This document shows, piece after piece, positions 629 through 8,386 of a DNA stretch of 8,386 nucleotides. Made by a program: the position numbers and the translations under genes. The stretch comes from Nanobdellota archaeon (GTDB taxonomy: Archaea; Nanobdellota; Nanobdellia; Nanobdellales; Nanobdellaceae). The DNA is taken from the NCBI GenBank assembly GCA_020697515.1, contig JAIXNB010000013.1, positions 1 through 8,386 of the forward strand. Direction: 5' to 3'. The first letter of the stretch is position 1; each line of letters opens with the position of its first letter. The notes beneath the pieces were generated by a model. The model did no database searches and had not been told where the DNA came from. It was given only the letters and a program-made list of their open reading frames with translations.

Positions 629-1198
629 TTATATCTTTAGGATGCCTTTTTCTATTAGTCTATCCATACTTCTTCTTAGTATCTTTCTAAAGATGGCTCT
701 CTTTTGAAGACCTCCTAGCTTCATTGCAGCTTTTCTAAGGCTTCCTTCATCTATCAAAATCTTCAAGTATTGTTTTTGTTTTTCTGTTAACTTATTATCA
801 TACTTTAAAGCTAATCTTGCTAACTCCATAAGATCTATTTTTAGACCCTTCCAAGCAAAATCCTCTGAGTTTATATCATCTCTAAAGATTTCTACAGGTT
901 CAAATCTTATTATAACTATTTCCCTGTTTTCCTTTATCCAGGGATAATGCTCTTTTAGAGCTCGAAATAATTCTTCTTTATTATTAAAACCATCTAACTG
1001 TGCTTCCTCATCAGTAATTTGATGAAGTTTCTTTGTATATATATCTAATATCTTAAATTTTCCAATAACTTTTCCACCAGCATGAACAATAACGATATCT
1101 CCCTTTCTTAAATTTGGTTTTTCTATACGTATTGTCAATCTTTTTTTCCCTGTTTTTAAAAGCTCTGTATATTTTCCATCAAACTGAAGATGTTTCAT
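629..1198 (-). CDS. ASCH (PUA-like) domain protein with C-terminal helix-turn-helix-like tail
   Basis: 189 aa ORF starting at ATG 1198. The N-terminal ~100 aa show ASCH hallmarks: LQFDGKYTELLKTGKKRLTIRIE, KGDIVIVHAGG, ITDEEAQLDGF, EELFRALKEHYP, IVIIRFEPV. These are colinear with E. coli YqfB as I remember it (AGRKTITIRD ... YVIEF). Residues 137-189 (LTEKQKQYLKILIDEGSLRKAAMKLGGLQKRAIFRKILRRSMDRLIEKG) resemble a sigma-70 region-4/LuxR-type HTH. Its stop is only 3 nt from the stop of the convergent Rpp30-like gene. Confidence 0.8.
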   Translation of the reverse strand: MKHLQFDGKYTELLKTGKKRLTIRIEKPNLRKGDIVIVHAGGKVIGKFKILDIYTKKLHQITDEEAQLDGFNNKEELFRALKEHYPWIKENREIVIIRFEPVEIFRDDINSEDFAWKGLKIDLMELARLALKYDNKLTEKQKQYLKILIDEGSLRKAAMKLGGLQKRAIFRKILRRSMDRLIEKGILKI

Positions 1199-1231: not shown

Positions 1232-1286
1232 TAATGATGACATGTCGGTATACCGATTAGATGAGGATCCGAACTGCCCCTGACTA
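1232..1286 (+). ncRNA. C/D box sRNA (2'-O-methylation guide), dual guide
   Basis: The architecture is canonical with exact archaeal spacing. C box ATGATGA is at 1234-1240, followed by the 12-nt guide CATGTCGGTATA (1241-1252). D' box CCGA is at 1253-1256, followed by a 4-nt linker TTAG. C' box ATGAGGA is at 1261-1267, one mismatch to RTGATGA, followed by the 12-nt guide TCCGAACTGCCC (1268-1279). D box CTGA is at 1280-1283. The element lies in the intergenic gap between two minus-strand genes, is locally GC-richer than its flanks, and has a TATA-like box at the correct upstream distance. Confidence 0.72.
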
Positions 1287-1813: not shown

Positions 1814-1841
1814 TTTGTTAAGATGTTAACGTATCAGCAAC

Positions 1842-2761: not shown

Positions 2762-3766
2762 ATGAAGAGAGGGTTATCGTTTATCGTGGAGATAATATTA
2801 CTACTAATCTTATTTATGATATATTTCAATCAATTATTCCCCAGCGTATCTTTACCAGAATATTATAATGAAATTGTAGATATTCTTTACTTAGATTCAT
2901 TAGCTTATTCACTTATAGATCAGAAAATAAAACAAATCCTAGACCATTTTGATGTAGATTTGATATATATTACATTTAAACAGGTTTTATCATCACGGTT
3001 TAGCCGGTTCTACATACGGCTACATTATTATGAACCAGTGTTTGTGAAGGGTGATGGAGATTGTATACTCTTTATGTATCCTCTTCCATATGAATCTTCT
3101 AGTATTGACTTAAAGATTTTTGGATGGGATGGGATACAATGCACAAATTTATCATATTCTAAAGATTGGTATATGTTTATAGTACATGGCCTAGATGATT
3201 CCTTAAGTAACCAAAATATTTCTATAGATATCAGTGAATATCCTACTTTAGATCCCTACTCCTTATTCTTGTTTGATATTGATGGAAATCCGCTAAAAAT
3301 AAACGCAATGGCGTTAGATAGTAGCTTTTTAAATTTGTCAATAGAGAGTCTGTATAATAGAGAGGTTATTATCATGGGGAGAGTTAAGAACAACATTATA
3401 GAGCAAAATCTAACATATCTAGCAGGTAGATATCCAATTGTTTCCAAAATCAAAAATGCGGTTAATGTACAATTTGTTATGACTCATTCATCTTGGATAA
3501 CACTTGCTATAGATAAAAATTGTTATTCTCGTGGAAGATTATTGATAAAGATATCATACCCTGAAAAAGGAATGATAGTAAACAAAAATTACAATATGAT
3601 AATGTGTAATAGCGCACAAATGGCGTACTATTCTACTATAAACTTCTTTAGACCATTCGTAGATATACTTAAAGTACAAGGAATGCATAAGGCAAGTTAC
3701 AAATATGGGAGTAGTATAACATTTCCGGGCCTAATCTATAATACTATAGATATATATGTCGCGTAG
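2762..3766 (+). CDS. Hypothetical exported or membrane-anchored protein with a type IV pilin-like (class III) signal-peptide-like N-terminus
   Basis: I prefer ATG 2762 over the track's TTG 2753. This gives MKRG|LSFIVEIILLLILFMIYF, a basic residue-Gly followed by a hydrophobic helix, close to the archaeal prepilin peptidase motif but not a perfect match. There is no other TM segment. It has 4 Cys and 4 N-x-S/T sequons. A TATA-like TTTTTAAATA lies about 27 nt upstream. I recognise no family. Confidence 0.6.
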   Translation: MKRGLSFIVEIILLLILFMIYFNQLFPSVSLPEYYNEIVDILYLDSLAYSLIDQKIKQILDHFDVDLIYITFKQVLSSRFSRFYIRLHYYEPVFVKGDGDCILFMYPLPYESSSIDLKIFGWDGIQCTNLSYSKDWYMFIVHGLDDSLSNQNISIDISEYPTLDPYSLFLFDIDGNPLKINAMALDSSFLNLSIESLYNREVIIMGRVKNNIIEQNLTYLAGRYPIVSKIKNAVNVQFVMTHSSWITLAIDKNCYSRGRLLIKISYPEKGMIVNKNYNMIMCNSAQMAYYSTINFFRPFVDILKVQGMHKASYKYGSSITFPGLIYNTIDIYVA

Positions 3767-4352
3767 TCAGTTATATCTAATTACCCTATTTCTATTGTTT
3801 TTCTACATTTCCTTATTTACAAATTATATATCCTTAATAGAACAAAATGCCTTGAAATATAGGAAATATTTTGAGAATCTTCTAACTATTTATAAAGTAG
3901 AAAATTTTCATAATCTATATAAAAAACTATATAGGATAAAGAATAGTACAGTATGTGGCTTAACCATATATTATAATTGTAGTAATAACAATGTTTCAAT
4001 TGAGAATCCAGGATTTAGTTATGCAGTTATTTTAGACGAAAATCTAAATTTTATGAATACTTCGGTTGATCAAAAATGGATAAACTTTACAGTAAATGAA
4101 AAGAGAATATATAATGTAAAACAAAATATATGTATTTTTAGAGGATATATTGCAACGATTAAAGAATTCAATAACATGCAACCAATAATCGGAACACGGG
4201 CTATACTATATATAATCGATAATTTATCCTCCCAAAACGTCTCTGAGGAGTTCTTGCTACTTGTTAATAAAATAGAAAAGGATTTTAATATCCGGCTAGT
4301 AAATGATACAATAGAATATTACAACAATTATTTTAGGATACTACTCCAATAA
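3756..4352 (+). CDS. Hypothetical N-terminally anchored or secreted protein, sequon-rich
   Basis: 198 aa. Its ATG overlaps the upstream ORF by 11 nt, which suggests an operon or translational coupling. The N-terminus MSRSQLYLITLFLLFFYISLF is a signal-anchor-like helix. There are 8 N-x-S/T sequons in 198 aa (NST, NCS, NVS, NTS, NFT, NLS, NVS, NDT). I recognise no family. Confidence 0.55.
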   Translation: MSRSQLYLITLFLLFFYISLFTNYISLIEQNALKYRKYFENLLTIYKVENFHNLYKKLYRIKNSTVCGLTIYYNCSNNNVSIENPGFSYAVILDENLNFMNTSVDQKWINFTVNEKRIYNVKQNICIFRGYIATIKEFNNMQPIIGTRAILYIIDNLSSQNVSEEFLLLVNKIEKDFNIRLVNDTIEYYNNYFRILLQ

Positions 4353-4470
4353 TACGTTACTTTGAGGATTTGTATATTCTTCGAGCAGCGGTATAGCATT
4401 ATCAAACTATTGTATATTTTAAGATAATAATTAAATTTTAAATGATCCCTCATCTTAAAAACACTCTATA

Positions 4471-4541
4471 ATATATCCTTAGGATATCCTGCCCTTAATA
4501 TTTTAACAACCTTCATAGATTATGTTAACATTAGTTAACAT
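4471..4541. repeat. Copy A of a 71+ bp perfect direct repeat (intergenic element)
   Basis: ATATATCCTTAGGATATCCTGCCCTTAATATTTTAACAACCTTCATAGATTATGTTAACATTAGTTAACAT is identical base-for-base to 8316-8386. The flanks to the left (4441-4470 vs 8286-8315) are unrelated. Identity to the right cannot be followed because copy B hits the window end. Confidence 0.95.
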
Positions 4542-4586
4542 GGTGTTAACATCTATTTAACATATTGTTAACAATAAAATTAACAT
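4503..4586. repeat. Phased array of seven TTAACA (mostly GTTAACAT) motifs at 10-12 bp spacing
   Basis: TTAACA starts at 4503, 4525, 4535, 4546, 4557, 4568 and 4580. Spacings are 22 (2x11), 10, 11, 11, 11 and 12. Four copies are preceded by G and five are followed by T. The copy at 4522-4531 is the full 10-bp palindrome ATGTTAACAT. The array ends 4 nt from the trm1 stop codon (4591-4593). Confidence 0.9.
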
Positions 4587-4590
4587 TGTG

Positions 4591-5700
4591 TTAGGTTGTA
4601 AAGATATCTTTTAAAATAGGGTACTCTCTAGATTTTATTGTTAGGGGTCCAAAGTGTGTTCTGACAGCATTGAATTGCTCGAGAATTCTTTCAATCTTAG
4701 GGATATTTGGTACTTTTTGAGATTTAGCTAACAGGCTTATATTATAATAGTACCATACATCTTTATACTTAAAATCTCCATTAAGAATTTTCAGTAGAAC
4801 ATCATGCGACTCTTTATGTAATGATCTACACCGTACAATACTGTTCACAAACAAGTTATCATATAAAGGGCCTATATATATTGGTCCAAGCATCTTCATC
4901 TGTTTTTTGCATAATGGGCAAATTTTCTCATCTACGGATTTATAATGACAGGCTGGACAATAATATATATGCTTTATGTTTCCCATGACGAAATTAACAT
5001 CCTTACTTTTCTTAGATTTAATAAAAAATATTCTATAGTGGTGTAAATAATAGTATCCGAATATAGGGATCATTGCTGCATCAAATCTCAGTGCTTCTTC
5101 AATTACATATTTTGCCAGAGTCCTTAATCCGAATTCTAAATAGAAATCTGTTCGAATTCCTAAGCAAGAGTATTTTCTATAACATGCTTTTGATCTAACT
5201 CCTGATAAAGCGGAAATATCTGTTGCAGTGACACCTAGCATACCTCTATTTCTCAATGATAAAACAGCTGGCTGGATAAACCCTACTGGGCTACCAAATG
5301 GATCTATGTCTATATAATCATATTTATTTTTTAGCATTAAAATACGGCAGTCTTCATTGGAAACATTGATATTTTCAAAATATATTCTATTAAGTTCTAA
5401 ATTTTTCTTTATAAAATATATAGCATTATTATTTATATCATTTATCACAATTCGTTCTATTACTTCTGGGATCTCTAAAAGTATCCTTATACTCCTAATA
5501 CCAGACCCTGCCATCGCATCTAAAATAGTTAGTCTTTTTCTGTATATATCAGAATAAGTTTTTAAAGCAGCAATTGTAAAATCTCTATTTATTCTCATTT
5601 TAGGATTATAAAATACTCCCACCCGTCTAGAAAGTTTCTTCAACCATTCTTCGGAATAGATTATTTTAGCAGATCCTTCAGATATTATAGTAAATTCCAT
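4591..5700 (-). CDS. trm1: tRNA (guanine(26)-N2)-dimethyltransferase Trm1
   Basis: 369 aa with the Trm1 hallmarks: VFYNPKMRINRD, SAM-binding ILDAMAGSGIRSIR, IDIDPFGSP, and a C-terminal Cys cluster CPACH...CPLC (zinc finger). Length is typical for archaeal Trm1. Confidence 0.95.
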   Translation of the reverse strand: MEFTIISEGSAKIIYSEEWLKKLSRRVGVFYNPKMRINRDFTIAALKTYSDIYRKRLTILDAMAGSGIRSIRILLEIPEVIERIVINDINNNAIYFIKKNLELNRIYFENINVSNEDCRILMLKNKYDYIDIDPFGSPVGFIQPAVLSLRNRGMLGVTATDISALSGVRSKACYRKYSCLGIRTDFYLEFGLRTLAKYVIEEALRFDAAMIPIFGYYYLHHYRIFFIKSKKSKDVNFVMGNIKHIYYCPACHYKSVDEKICPLCKKQMKMLGPIYIGPLYDNLFVNSIVRCRSLHKESHDVLLKILNGDFKYKDVWYYYNISLLAKSQKVPNIPKIERILEQFNAVRTHFGPLTIKSREYPILKDIFTT

Positions 5701-5760
5701 ATTATTTACTTAGCAATCAAAAATAAAATGAGAGGACTGAACGACCAAATAACAAAGTAA

Positions 5761-5770
5761 ATATTTTTAA
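5761..5770 (+). promoter_or_regulatory. TATA-like box (ATATTTTTAA) upstream of tRNA-Glu
   Basis: An A/T box centred about 33 nt upstream of tRNA position 1. It would give a short 5' leader requiring RNase P processing. Confidence 0.35.
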
Positions 5771-5798
5771 CTTTACCTGGTAAACTATATAGTATCAA

Positions 5799-5873
5799 GC
5801 CCCCGTCGTCTAGCCAGGTCTAGGATGCGGGGTTTTCGTCCCCGAGACCCGGGTTCGAATCCCGGCGGGGGCA
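5799..5873 (+). tRNA. tRNA-Glu (anticodon UUC), intronless, CCA not encoded
   Basis: Hand-folded cloverleaf of 75 nt. Acceptor is GCCCCCG/CGGGGGC and the discriminator is A. D stem is GUCU/GGAU with an 11-nt loop containing GG, and position 26 is G. Anticodon stem is CGGGG/CCCCG with loop UU-UUC-GU. The variable loop is AGAC. T arm is CCGGG-UUCGAAU-CCCGG. T-rich runs follow at 5882-5886 and 5897-5900. Confidence 0.96.
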
Positions 5874-5910
5874 AGTTTAGTCTTTTAATCTGGGACTTTT
5901 AGAGTTTGTT

Positions 5911-8277
5911 TTACTTTTCTTTTAACCAATTAAATATCTTTTTAGCCCCCTTCTTTATTTTTCTTCTAGCTTCCCCGACTTTAATATCAAAATATTTTGC
6001 AACTTTCCTCATACTCCAGGCTAAATAAATTTTTGATATTAATAATAACTCCTCTTCCTTGGTTAGTTTTGGCCTATCTTTTTTGGTATACATAAAATAG
6101 TATGTTGTTAGGTTTCGAACTATATCTGCTGCAGCCTCATAAGTCATGGGTCCTCTAAAATATACTTTGGCTCTTTGTATTTGGTTATCGGTTAGTAATG
6201 GGTTGAAATGAGGTTCATGTTCATAAGGAGTTTGTAGAAGTTGCCAGATTAATTCAGGAGTCATATCGAAGAATACATCAGTTATTTGATTTAAGAATCT
6301 CCATCTAAACTCGTAATTTAGCTTTCTTACTATTTTGTTAGTTTTTTCATCGAGTGGTTTTAATACTATAACAGAATACTCCCCAGAAACTCTGTTTTTC
6401 TCTGGGGATATATGAACTACTACAAAACCATTTTTCTGCCAAAATCTTAAAAGTTCAACTGTTGCTCCAAATCCAGAGCCTAACCAATTATATTTAATAT
6501 TCTCAGCCCAAATAGATAGCTCGCGTAGCGCCGTAGATCCTAAGCCCTTGCCCTGAGCTTCGGGATGGGTAGCAATTCTAACAATTCTTAATCCTTTTAG
6601 TTTAGGAAACTCAGTTTCCCTATAATGTTTTGCAATTACGTCCGGAATTATGTTACCTTTGGGTTTATAATCCTTTAGCATTCTTTTGATAGTATCTTCC
6701 GGAATATTTCCTTCATACGCTACTTGTATAGCTGTTACAATCTTATTAGATCCTAATTCAAGTGAAAATCCATCATGATGTGGCGCATCGGCTATCATGG
6801 CGATATCATTGGGTCTATTTTGATAATGTGCCAAGATATATATCCCGACGAACTGCCTAAGTTTTTCCTCTTCTTTTTCAAACCACTTTTCTAGAGGAAT
6901 TTTGTAAAATATTGTAGCTTTTTCCTTTATCTGTTGTAAATCCTTTTCATCCAAATGGGCGGGTTCAGCATCTAATAATAGTGTATCAAACAGCCATTTT
7001 TCAATTGGGTCATTATCATTATATCTTATTGGCTCTTTCATTTTATACTCATATACCTTAAAATTCGTATTTTCCTTTAGATGTTTTAGGAACCTTACTG
7101 AAAAGGATCTTCCAGCTCCCTCATAACCATGGATAGTTGAAGAAAACACTAACTTCTTATATTTTTTTAAATAATCGTATAAAATAGTAACACTTATACC
7201 TGCAGCTTCATCCACAAATAGAAAATTATATTTTTTATCCAAGATATTTAATGGTTCTCTATATTCTATGAAGATCTTATTTTTTATAGAGAGCTTCTTC
7301 TTAGATACTTTTTTGAAATTTATATTTAATTTTTTTAGCCCTATCTCCAAGAACTCGAACAGTGTTTCTATATTGTCAAAAGATGGAGAAGTTATTCCAA
7401 TGTCCCACTTTCCTTTTTTATCTAAAAGTATTTCTGTTAAACCTGCTATTGCTAGTCCTAAAACTGCGCTCTTACCTCTCCCTCTATCAGCAATCACAAC
7501 ATAAGCTTTCCTATCTTTATCTAGCAATCCCTCTAATAACTTTAGCACTTCTATTTGATCTTGTGTATATGCAACCCTATATATTCTCTCCGAGAAAAGT
7601 GTATCTGAGGGAAGAATTATCTTTTTTCTCTCAGGAAATATCACATCTCTTTCTACTTTTTTTTCAGGCCCCTTTATTACACCCTTTTTGACATCATAGA
7701 TGTATATTCCTCTATGTTCCAAGAGTTTTCTTTTGAATCTTTTTTCAAATATTTTTCTAACATCCTTAAGTTCATAGGGAGGAGTTAGTAGATGCTTATG
7801 GAAGGTAGTATAAACCTGTTCAAAGTTCTCAAAATCTTCTATTAACATAAATATTACCCCCCCACCTCTAACTGTTCCAACTAACCTCCCTAAATCATCT
7901 GGAGTAAGACTTCTATACATGTCTAGAATTAAAAAATCATATGTTTTACCCATATATTCTTTTGAATTCCTATATTTACCTCTCTTTATCTTTAAATATG
8001 ATAAATCTTCTCTGTTTATAAGATCTTTAAATTCACTATATCTTTTTAAGTAATCTCCATGATAGTCCTCAGTAACATACAAACCTATTACTTCACTTTT
8101 AAAATTATACATAATCTTTGCATATGAAAGTACCATATTTGCTAGCAACCTCTCATAATTTCTTCCAGATAGAACAACTAATCTCCTATGATTGTTCTGT
8201 ATTGCCTCTGCAACAGCAGATTCAAACAAATCCTTCAAATCTTTTGGTAAGTCATATTCAGCATTAACTAACACCAT
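5911..8277 (-). CDS. tmcA: tRNA/RNA cytidine N4-acetyltransferase TmcA (archaeal Nat10 homologue)
   Basis: 788 aa. It has the N-terminal HRRLVVLSGR (DUF1726-type) region, helicase Walker A ADRGRGKSAVLG, Walker B FLFVDEAAGI and GNAT acetyl-CoA motif RIVRIATHPEAQGKGLGSTAL, followed by a helical C-terminal RNA-binding region. The domain order matches TmcA/Nat10. Confidence 0.95.
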   Translation of the reverse strand: MVLVNAEYDLPKDLKDLFESAVAEAIQNNHRRLVVLSGRNYERLLANMVLSYAKIMYNFKSEVIGLYVTEDYHGDYLKRYSEFKDLINREDLSYLKIKRGKYRNSKEYMGKTYDFLILDMYRSLTPDDLGRLVGTVRGGGVIFMLIEDFENFEQVYTTFHKHLLTPPYELKDVRKIFEKRFKRKLLEHRGIYIYDVKKGVIKGPEKKVERDVIFPERKKIILPSDTLFSERIYRVAYTQDQIEVLKLLEGLLDKDRKAYVVIADRGRGKSAVLGLAIAGLTEILLDKKGKWDIGITSPSFDNIETLFEFLEIGLKKLNINFKKVSKKKLSIKNKIFIEYREPLNILDKKYNFLFVDEAAGISVTILYDYLKKYKKLVFSSTIHGYEGAGRSFSVRFLKHLKENTNFKVYEYKMKEPIRYNDNDPIEKWLFDTLLLDAEPAHLDEKDLQQIKEKATIFYKIPLEKWFEKEEEKLRQFVGIYILAHYQNRPNDIAMIADAPHHDGFSLELGSNKIVTAIQVAYEGNIPEDTIKRMLKDYKPKGNIIPDVIAKHYRETEFPKLKGLRIVRIATHPEAQGKGLGSTALRELSIWAENIKYNWLGSGFGATVELLRFWQKNGFVVVHISPEKNRVSGEYSVIVLKPLDEKTNKIVRKLNYEFRWRFLNQITDVFFDMTPELIWQLLQTPYEHEPHFNPLLTDNQIQRAKVYFRGPMTYEAAADIVRNLTTYYFMYTKKDRPKLTKEEELLLISKIYLAWSMRKVAKYFDIKVGEARRKIKKGAKKIFNWLKEK

Positions 8278-8315
8278 TTTAACCCTTGATATAAAAATAA
8301 TTTTATTTTAATAAT

Positions 8316-8386
8316 ATATATCCTTAGGATATCCTGCCCTTAATATTTTAACAACCTTCATAGATTATGTTAACATTAGTTAACAT
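8316..8386. repeat. Copy B of the 71+ bp perfect direct repeat, truncated by the window end
   Basis: Identical to 4471-4541 at an offset of exactly 3845 bp. It begins 39 nt upstream of the tmcA start codon (8277), so it occupies the tmcA upstream region. The visible TTAACA motifs are at 8348, 8370 and 8380. Confidence 0.95.

Follow-up and report, generated by a model that had tools for sequence, protein, structure and literature searches.

Repetitive extragenic palindromic (REP) sequences and bacterial interspersed mosaic elements (BIMEs) are short palindromic units that sit behind genes, often between convergent genes, and are bound by architectural proteins. The parC centromere/operator of plasmid R1 comprises two sets of five 11-bp iterons, each of which takes one dimer of the ribbon-helix-helix protein ParR, with binding that is cooperative and in phase (PMC2241845). 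In the archaeal virus SSV1, tandem 11-bp repeats (ATAGATAGAGT) at or next to the transcription factor B recognition element (BRE)/TATA box and the transcription start are bound in a concentration-dependent manner by the ribbon-helix-helix repressor F55 (PMC5569661). Here we analyse an 8,386-nt stretch of DNA from a Nanobdellota archaeon (contig JAIXNB010000013.1, referred to throughout as the window), in which a 102-bp non-coding tract occurs as two identical direct copies. Copy A lies between the stop codons of trm1 and a convergent 198-aa open reading frame (ORF198), and copy B lies upstream of tmcA, at the very end of the window. Homologues of TmcA place the window lineage in Nanopusillus (Nanoarchaeota / Nanobdellota). 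The repeat is most likely a cis-acting DNA element of a Nanopusillus lineage, and not a gene, an RNA or a transposon. We think it probable that it represents a conserved, non-coding, phased iteron-like array for a predicted DNA-binding protein, recently patch-copied from site A to site B.

A repeat search of the window finds positions 4471-4541 to be identical to 8316-8386 over all 71 nt, and detects no other long repeat. To follow copy B past the window edge, we used a longer contig, ENA ERZ27236680 k127_29727 (locus L001, 25.7 kb), reached through an exact TmcA protein match. It carries the window sequence in reverse complement and runs past the window's end, such that an L001 coordinate equals 16647 minus the window coordinate. 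On L001 the full repeat is 102 bp long at 100% identity (8230-8331 and 12075-12176, spacing 3845), which confirms the claim of the first-pass annotation that a perfect direct repeat of at least 71 bp surrounds trm1, tRNA-Glu and tmcA. An exact match of 71-102 bp within 8-20 kb cannot be due to chance. Copy A is complete in the window (4471-4572, - strand, L001 12075-12176), while copy B (also - strand, L001 8230-8331) is represented there by 71 of its 102 bp at 8316-8386 and extends for 31 bp past the edge. Both ends of the repeat are sharp, the first-pass annotation having noted one sharp boundary from the unrelated left flanks, and we see that the flanks of the two copies are unrelated on either side; any extended homology between the flanks of copy B and those of copy A was rejected, as none was found.

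Copy A is present in the same trm1/ORF198 context in four assemblies from at least three samples, with overall identity of 99.96-100% (L001/L129; L002, GCA_015662215.1; L130, JGI 3300013798; L131, ERZ23486682), and in L130 it carries a 1-nt insertion within one box. Of the copy B junctions, the right one is found in the window as well as in L001, and the left one in L001 only. The MEGAHIT assembly of L001 used k=127, a length exceeding that of the repeat (102 bp), so k-mers covering the copy B junctions must exist in the reads. The window itself corresponds to L002 plus 269 nt and stops within copy B, an end point that fits an assembler halting in a repeat.

Read on the window + strand, the repeat is composed of hexamer boxes of the form G-WWWW-C, of which two are GATATC-type and seven are TTAAC-type. 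The GATATC-type boxes, TATATC (4472-4477) and GATATC (4483-4488), start 11 bp apart. They are followed by the TTAAC-type boxes CTTAAT (4494-4499) and TTTAAC (4502-4507), which lie 8 bp apart and together make up CTTAATATTTTAAC (4494-4507), and then by a block of five further TTAAC-type boxes (4524-4572) at spacings of 10, 11, 11 and 11 bp. This block comprises GTTAAC at 4524-4529, 4534-4539 and 4545-4550, TTTAAC at 4556-4561 and GTTAAC at 4567-4572, the last box in the duplicated tract, and it contains a 32-nt core, TTAACATGGTGTTAACATCYATTTAACATA. In copy A the array runs on outside the duplicated tract, where ATTAAC (4579-4584) is followed by GTTAGG (4590-4595), a degenerate box overlapping the stop codon of trm1; this stretch aligns with L132 and L138. 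Copy A thereby has eleven box starts separated by 11, 11, 8, 22, 10, 11, 11, 11, 12 and 11 bp. The first-pass annotation had proposed reading past position 8386 to see whether copy B also runs into this array. The additional 31 bp do include the remaining TTAAC-type boxes, and ATTAAC and GTTAGG are found in copy A only.

The spacing of the boxes is highly regular. Tandem Repeats Finder reports periods of 11 and 22 for the element, Rayleigh periodicity of the boxes peaks at 10.9-11.1 bp, and chains of at least three boxes at 10-12 bp occur on L001 only in the two copies (shuffled sequences give an expectation of 0.01). The array consists, in other words, of iterons of ~10-11 bp in helical phase, as in a parC-like site. 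The GC content of the element is ~27%, compared to ~65% for the tRNA. When the element is folded as RNA it forms only AU hairpins, made by the palindromic boxes; an Rfam search with the element gave no match; and TAA stops occur in all frames on both strands across it. These observations indicate that the element acts at the level of DNA and is neither a structured RNA nor a coding sequence.

Copy A starts 18 nt past the trm1 stop and is followed by 118 nt leading to the stop of ORF198. The first-pass annotation had pointed out that it faces a convergent gene and has no obvious minus-strand gene to control, and we agree that no gene start is available there. Orthologous gaps in relatives were located using ORF198 as an anchor. 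In the sister species L132 (Trm1 82% identity), the boxes GTTAAT, GTTAAA, GTTAAA, GTTAAC, GTTAAT and GTTAAC come straight after the trm1 stop in the same register as copy A, with spacers that have partly diverged. In L134 and L135, found via ORF198 (73-74% identity), the arrangement GATATC-N5-GATATC-N4-TTTAAC lies a few bases from the ORF198 stop. In L138 (66% identity) the whole 175-nt trm1/ORF198 gap is covered and aligns with the entire 102-bp unit. Copy A consequently has a whole-length homologue in L138 and partial homologues, representing its ends, at the same position in L132, L134 and L135. The GATATC pair is retained as GATATC-N5-GATATC in L134, L135 and L138, and the 32-nt core is nearly invariant across the sampled species. 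The equivalents of CTTAATATTTTAAC are CTTAACATTTTAAC in L138 and TTTAACATTTTAAC in L134; although CTTAATATTTTAAC has the look of a TATA box, we rejected this as its primary identity, as both relatives show two plain TTAAC boxes there.

Between the window species and L138, identity is 83% for the element, 71% for ORF198 and 74% for the 3' end of trm1. By a comparison that is somewhat biased (see below), box cores match at 37/38 positions between these two species and spacers at 40/59 (Fisher p = 2.5e-4), while the corresponding values against L132 are 24/24 and 18/26 (p = 0.004). Boxes are, by this measure, conserved above spacers across species, as an operator array would be. The alignments show the trm1/ORF198 gap to be the ancestral site, with the element predating the split from at least three related lineages, and by the same comparison they show copy A to be under purifying selection. 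The first-pass annotation had read the perfect identity of the copies as either recent copying or constraint. Both apply, the cross-species conservation of copy A showing constraint and the identity of A and B recent copying. In the more distant L133 there is no trm1/ORF198 gap at all, the two genes overlapping by 24 nt, which means that the element arose in a subclade and has been kept there. The 118-nt spacer between the ORF198 stop and copy A (4353-4470) is species-specific. L134, L135 and L138 lack it, their GATATC boxes following within 8-21 nt of the ORF198 stop, and it shows no fold signal (z = -0.1) and no similarity to any other sequence compared. A C/D or H/ACA small RNA (sRNA) in this spacer was rejected for want of boxes, fold signal or homology, and a small open reading frame of 41 codons starting 18 nt after copy A was rejected as the region is absent from the sister species.

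Copy B lies between the helicase stop (L001 8202) and the tmcA ATG (L001 8370), where it makes up the middle 102 nt of a 167-nt gap and ends 38 nt before the ATG. Those 38 nt (8278-8315, - strand) adjoin copy B and form the tmcA core-promoter region, which contains TTATTAAA at 8307-8314, or -37 from the ATG. In L004 and L006 the same sequence lies at -29 relative to the tmcA start codon, and in the window species the copied tract ends exactly where it begins. Since TATA-like boxes precede the ATG of other genes on the contig by 25-35 nt, TTATTAAA is likely the tmcA TATA box. The surrounding gene order (eIF2alpha, Nop10, PAC2, MJ0538, L44e, GINS, helicase, tmcA) is conserved from NZ13-N to Nanobdella, and the helicase-tmcA adjacency as far as Nanobdella.

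The helicase-tmcA gap is unusually long in distant relatives (175-215 nt), and contains neither a tight array nor a GATATC pair. It is nonetheless rich in boxes. In each of L004, L006 and L007 it is the only stretch per ~20 kb with at least five TTAAC/GTTAA boxes per 150 nt; 19 boxes fall within 587 nt of helicase-tmcA gaps, compared to 10 within the 2318 nt that all other gaps make up, and shuffled helicase-tmcA gaps hold 0.8-0.9. A profile hidden Markov model (HMM) of the element recovers every known copy and gives just two weak matches outside those, both in the L004 helicase-tmcA gap. In L003 (77% identity), the closest tmcA relative in which a different gene lies upstream, no boxes precede tmcA, showing that the boxes do not simply travel with that gene. 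The gap comparisons show the helicase-tmcA gap to have been a loose TTAAC-box cluster since before the split of Nanobdella and Nanopusillus. Since copy A and the trm1-side element of other species are base-by-base orthologues, and since the GATATC pair and tight array are missing at the helicase-tmcA locus of distant relatives, copy B is secondary and, judged from these alignments, the direction of copying is from A to B. One proposal of the first-pass annotation was a protein-binding regulatory cassette shared by RNA-modification genes. Phasing and conservation make a predicted protein-binding array the best-supported part of that proposal, while the idea of sharing does not hold up, given that the conserved position of copy A is between convergent genes and that tmcA in L003 has no upstream boxes.

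Beyond the locus, the profile HMM (nhmmer) found two copies in ~22 kb of this genome and none elsewhere in ~108 kb of related Nanopusillaceae loci. A metagenome search for related loci using Trm1 found no relatives. Scans of viral sequences returned either no match or, in a phage, two matches of two boxes each that are attributable to chance. BLAST against phage and plasmid sequences found nothing, and the IMG/VR collections likewise contain nothing similar to the element. When genome contigs were scanned with the degenerate pattern GTTAAM-N5 x4, the search picked up a dispersed Prevotellaceae repeat, with no Nanoarchaeota among the matches listed, the pattern being too degenerate. The repeat recovered in this way is of separate note: in metagenome-assembled genomes (MAGs) of rumen Prevotellaceae (L009-L088, for example L058 6790-7170 and L023 285-330), a set of four GTTAAM boxes 11 bp apart recurs abundantly as a dispersed or tandem repeat, arranged in L058 as 68-bp tandem units of CTTTAACTNC. 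A Nitrososphaeraceae MAG also holds a 2 x 22-bp GTTAAC array that closely resembles the one studied here.

The architecture of the element suggests how it might function. A small dimeric DNA-binding protein would bind one box per helical turn and polymerise cooperatively into a nucleoprotein filament, in the manner of ribbon-helix-helix proteins on 11-bp iterons. The boxes would present themselves on one face of the helix, as two GATATC-type boxes followed by seven or eight of TTAAC-type at spacings of mostly 10-12 bp. In the window species alone, the middle 102 bp of the helicase-tmcA gap would recently have been overwritten by an exact copy of A, likely through short-tract ectopic gene conversion or template switching over 3.8 kb. 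This copying was probably seeded by microhomology between boxes, the left end of the tract being a GTTAAC box, and copy B was probably tolerated since a box cluster replaced a box cluster and left the tmcA core promoter intact. A protein bound at copy B would lie immediately before the TATA/BRE of tmcA and might act as a repressor or an activator of that gene. For copy A, where no gene start is available, we would instead expect an architectural or insulating role, for example as a roadblock to convergent transcription or as a chromosome-organisation site.

Several observations weigh against this account. Protein binding is deduced here only from the architecture and conservation of the sequence, and the Pfam lists contain no ribbon-helix-helix, ParR-like or other candidate regulator gene within 20 kb. 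The comparison of boxes with spacers is somewhat biased, as MAFFT takes the repeated boxes as anchors and the box definition itself came from one of the sequences compared. In the helicase-tmcA gaps of the distant relatives, phasing is not significant at fixed box number (p = 0.14, 0.03 and 0.23). The copy count covers ~22 kb of this genome, and a metagenome scan for a 24-mer gave 0 matches in what was a false negative, since JGI contig L130 contains that same 24-mer. Finally, the L132, L134 and L135 contigs all end within the array, which could reflect either further copies, as in a dispersed family, or polymorphism in array length.

Other explanations were considered alongside the phased protein-binding array. 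The element may serve in chromosome maintenance, as a centromere-like site of partition or within an origin or terminus of replication, with the phased iterons nucleating a segregation or initiation complex and the duplication incidental. We regard this as unlikely, although the element is conserved above its flanking genes even where, at copy A, it has no gene start to regulate, its five 11-bp iterons resemble R1 parC, and the family-wide box cluster lies beside the GINS51 and helicase genes, with Cdc45/RecJ 6 kb away. No parA, parM, segA or orc1/cdc6 gene is found within ~20 kb, however, and the genes within 10 kb on either side include no parR/parM or parA/parB-like Pfam families that might serve a parC-like site. 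An origin would also be at odds with the lack of an ORB-type (origin recognition box) dyad and G-string in the element, and with the situation in the sister species, whose gap of ~120-175 nt is taken up by the element so that an unwinding region would have no space. GC skew is dominated by gene orientation, and L133 has no site at trm1. In a more radical version, to which we attach a slim chance, the TTAAC/GATATC arrays would be the cis-sites of an unrecognised chromosome-organising or partition system of the Nanopusillaceae. A small protein would again polymerise on one-box-per-turn iterons, with an ancient primary site at the helicase-tmcA cluster and a second, younger one at trm1, and such a system would explain why a promoterless gap is conserved better than the surrounding genes. 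With similarly small probability, the repeat acts as a promoter cassette from which a short antisense or non-coding RNA is made. The conserved ATTTTAAC would then serve as a TATA box for transcription into the array on the window + strand, giving an RNA antisense to the 3' end of trm1 at copy A and to that of the helicase gene at copy B. The sequence resembles putative TATA boxes of tRNA-Glu (TATTTTTAAC), eIF2-alpha (GTTTTTAAC) and GINS (CATTTTAAAAC) on the same contig, it is conserved in L134 and L138, and both copies lie directly behind a + strand gene on L001. Yet the same stretch in L138 is two ordinary TTAAC boxes, the RNA would be AU-rich and lacks a stable fold for a thermophile as well as an Rfam match, and hexamers that are palindromic at the DNA level argue for recognition of double-stranded DNA.

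Readings in which the repeat moves, recombines or is not real fare less well. That a non-autonomous mobile element or a member of a dispersed family, such as a miniature inverted-repeat transposable element (MITE), REP or PATE-like element, landed at two sites is decidedly unlikely. The copies are identical with sharp ends, three sister-species contigs end inside the array as contigs do at multi-copy repeats, and the empty metagenome scan is unreliable, but the hallmarks of transposition are missing. There are no terminal inverted repeats, as the ends GTTAACAATATG... and ...AAGGATATAT (L001 + strand) are not complementary and the repeat search detected no such pair for the unit, and there is no target-site duplication, B being flanked by ...GTCGCCA / ATTATTA... 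and A by ...TTTTATT / TATAGAG... The positional orthology of copy A in four lineages marks a stable chromosomal feature, the HMM found no further copy in ~108 kb of Nanopusillaceae DNA, and phage, plasmid and viral collections hold no matches. The MITE/REP-like family raised by the first-pass annotation is disfavoured on these grounds, and so is its suggestion of recombination sites looping out the 3.8-kb module. Direct perfect repeats do flank a discrete segment that includes a tRNA gene, as att or dif-like sites would if they bracketed an excisable or recently integrated tmcA-tRNA-Glu-trm1 module, yet we judge this highly improbable. No integrase or recombinase gene lies in or near the segment, and the Pfam families of the genes listed over 20 kb include no recombinase. 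The repeat lies clear of the tRNA (5799-5873) and has no 11-6-11 dif-type inverted repeat. The conserved helicase-tmcA and trm1-ORF198-ORF334-SecF syntenies indicate that both ends are native, rearrangement breakpoints relative to relatives do not coincide with the copies, and excision would delete three housekeeping genes (tmcA, tRNA-Glu and trm1). The chance that the repeat is an assembly artefact, a single true copy mis-joined or duplicated by the assembler, is close to negligible. It is true that only L001 spans copy B fully and that the window contig stops 71 nt into it. Against this, copy A recurs in the four assemblies, the right junction of copy B is seen in two, the k of 127 exceeds the repeat length in the contig that spans copy B, and helicase-tmcA synteny in relatives supports the copy B context. 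The mis-assembly that the first-pass annotation had listed as something that would weaken a regulatory or mobile role is not supported.

The genes around the two copies are those named in the first-pass annotation, their labels being correct by Pfam domains, ARAGORN and Rfam. On the - strand, trm1 (4591-5700; Pfam PF02005) encodes a tRNA m2,2G26 methyltransferase, and tmcA (5911-8277; Pfam TmcA_N, NAT10 helicase and GNAT domains) encodes an RNA cytidine N4-acetyltransferase. Between them on the + strand is tRNA-Glu(UUC) (5799-5873; ARAGORN, Rfam). ORF198 (3756-4352, + strand) is a lineage-specific membrane or pilin-like open reading frame that converges with trm1, and the trm1-ORF198-ORF334-SecF adjacency is conserved as far as L133. 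In NZ13-N and Nanobdella, tRNA-Glu(UUC) lies 1.5-3 kb downstream of tmcA on the same strand; in the window species it is inverted and adjacent, its inversion relative to L004 and L007 involving the 5701-5910 region of the window. A cysteine desulfurase gene found near tmcA in NZ13-N and Nanobdella is missing at the window locus, and the block from trm1 to the ASCH gene is inverted relative to L133. Rearrangement breakpoints with respect to relatives fall between tmcA and trm1 and after the ASCH gene, and none falls at the copies.

The ASCH-domain protein itself (window 629-1198, - strand) has a confidently predicted C-terminal four-helix domain. According to a 2026 preprint, the architecture of an ASCH domain with a C-terminal helical domain is that of an archaeal tRNA N4-acetylcytidine (ac4C) deacetylase with a tRNA-binding helix-turn-helix (HTH). 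A candidate ac4C eraser hence lies 4.7 kb from the ac4C writer tmcA, and the window also holds trm1, archease, a tRNA and a putative C/D sRNA. The ASCH protein is not a good candidate for a box-binding regulator, its C-terminal domain matching an HTH reported to bind tRNA and not DNA. The putative C/D-box sRNA gene (window 1233-1284, + strand) is in the ASCH-archease gap and reads AATGATGA, 12 nt, CCGA, 4 nt, GATGAGGA, 12 nt, CTGA, with no Rfam match. At window 1817-1830, 40-57 nt before the archease ATG and ahead of a TATA-like box, is GTTAAG-N2-GTTAAC (reverse complement CGTTAACATCTTAAC), which resembles a TTAACATNTTAAC sub-motif of the element. We tested this sub-motif as a recurring signal, as it also occurs before L004 tRNA-Glu, and rejected it, since three independent loci against 1.4 expected is not significant. 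Outside the window on the same contig, a 535-nt gap before nurA (L129 20237-20770) carries GC-rich islands (CCCCGCCC...GCGGGG) and gave no Rfam or tRNA match. Other gaps in this genome are tiny, unlike this one, which probably contains one or more unannotated non-coding RNAs. Unusually GC-rich non-coding stretches also flank tmcA in L003 (1-308 and 2673-3050); they have no Rfam match and may be unannotated RNA genes.

The genomes of Nanoarchaeota are tiny and tightly packed, and hardly any regulatory DNA has been described in them; to our knowledge, phased arrays of this kind have not been described in the phylum. In such a genome, a non-coding element of ~110 bp is conserved better than the genes that flank it, and a box-rich gap has been kept from Nanobdella to Nanopusillus. 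The element offers a concrete bait with which a DNA-binding protein could be sought in a lineage that is uncultivated or grown in co-culture. RNA acetylation (ac4C) is a heat-responsive modification in archaea, and if the binding protein controls tmcA, it would bear on how ac4C is regulated. The locus is also a clean case, from nature, of a short tract copied ectopically between sites of similar function in a reduced genome, and the duplicated tract explains why short-k assemblies of these organisms break here. In short, the best-supported description, drawn from sequence comparison, is of a lineage-specific and apparently selectively maintained array with a recent local duplicate, of moderate interest and mainly as a handle on its predicted binding protein.

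When set beside the systems introduced above, the element shares some features with each. Like archaeal ORB and mini-ORB sites, it offers repeated boxes, here predicted to bind protein, in a conserved non-coding region near replication genes. ORBs, though, are longer dyads with a G-string, inverted around an AT-rich unwinding region and usually beside orc1/cdc6, and none of these features is seen here. With REP and BIME sequences it has in common short palindromic intergenic units in gaps behind genes. Those families run to tens or hundreds of copies of GC-rich stem-loops, acting at the RNA or DNA level, that are not positionally orthologous, whereas the element has two known copies, is AT-rich and strictly phased, and has one copy that is positionally conserved. 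The F55 sites of SSV1 are a closer archaeal parallel in that tandem 11-bp repeats are found at a promoter and copy B ends exactly at the putative tmcA TATA box, but the F55 sites are viral, comprise two repeats each of a different sequence, and are always at promoters, while copy A has no promoter to control. R1 parC differs in that the present element is chromosomal and archaeal with no parR/parM or other partition gene nearby, that its ancestral copy lies between convergent gene ends and not around a promoter, and that its boxes are palindromic hexamers of two kinds (GATATC and TTAAC). The likeness to parC lies in the array itself: where parC has five directly repeated 11-bp iterons by a promoter, this element has five TTAAC boxes at 10-11 bp together with further phased boxes, and in copy B these abut the putative promoter of tmcA.

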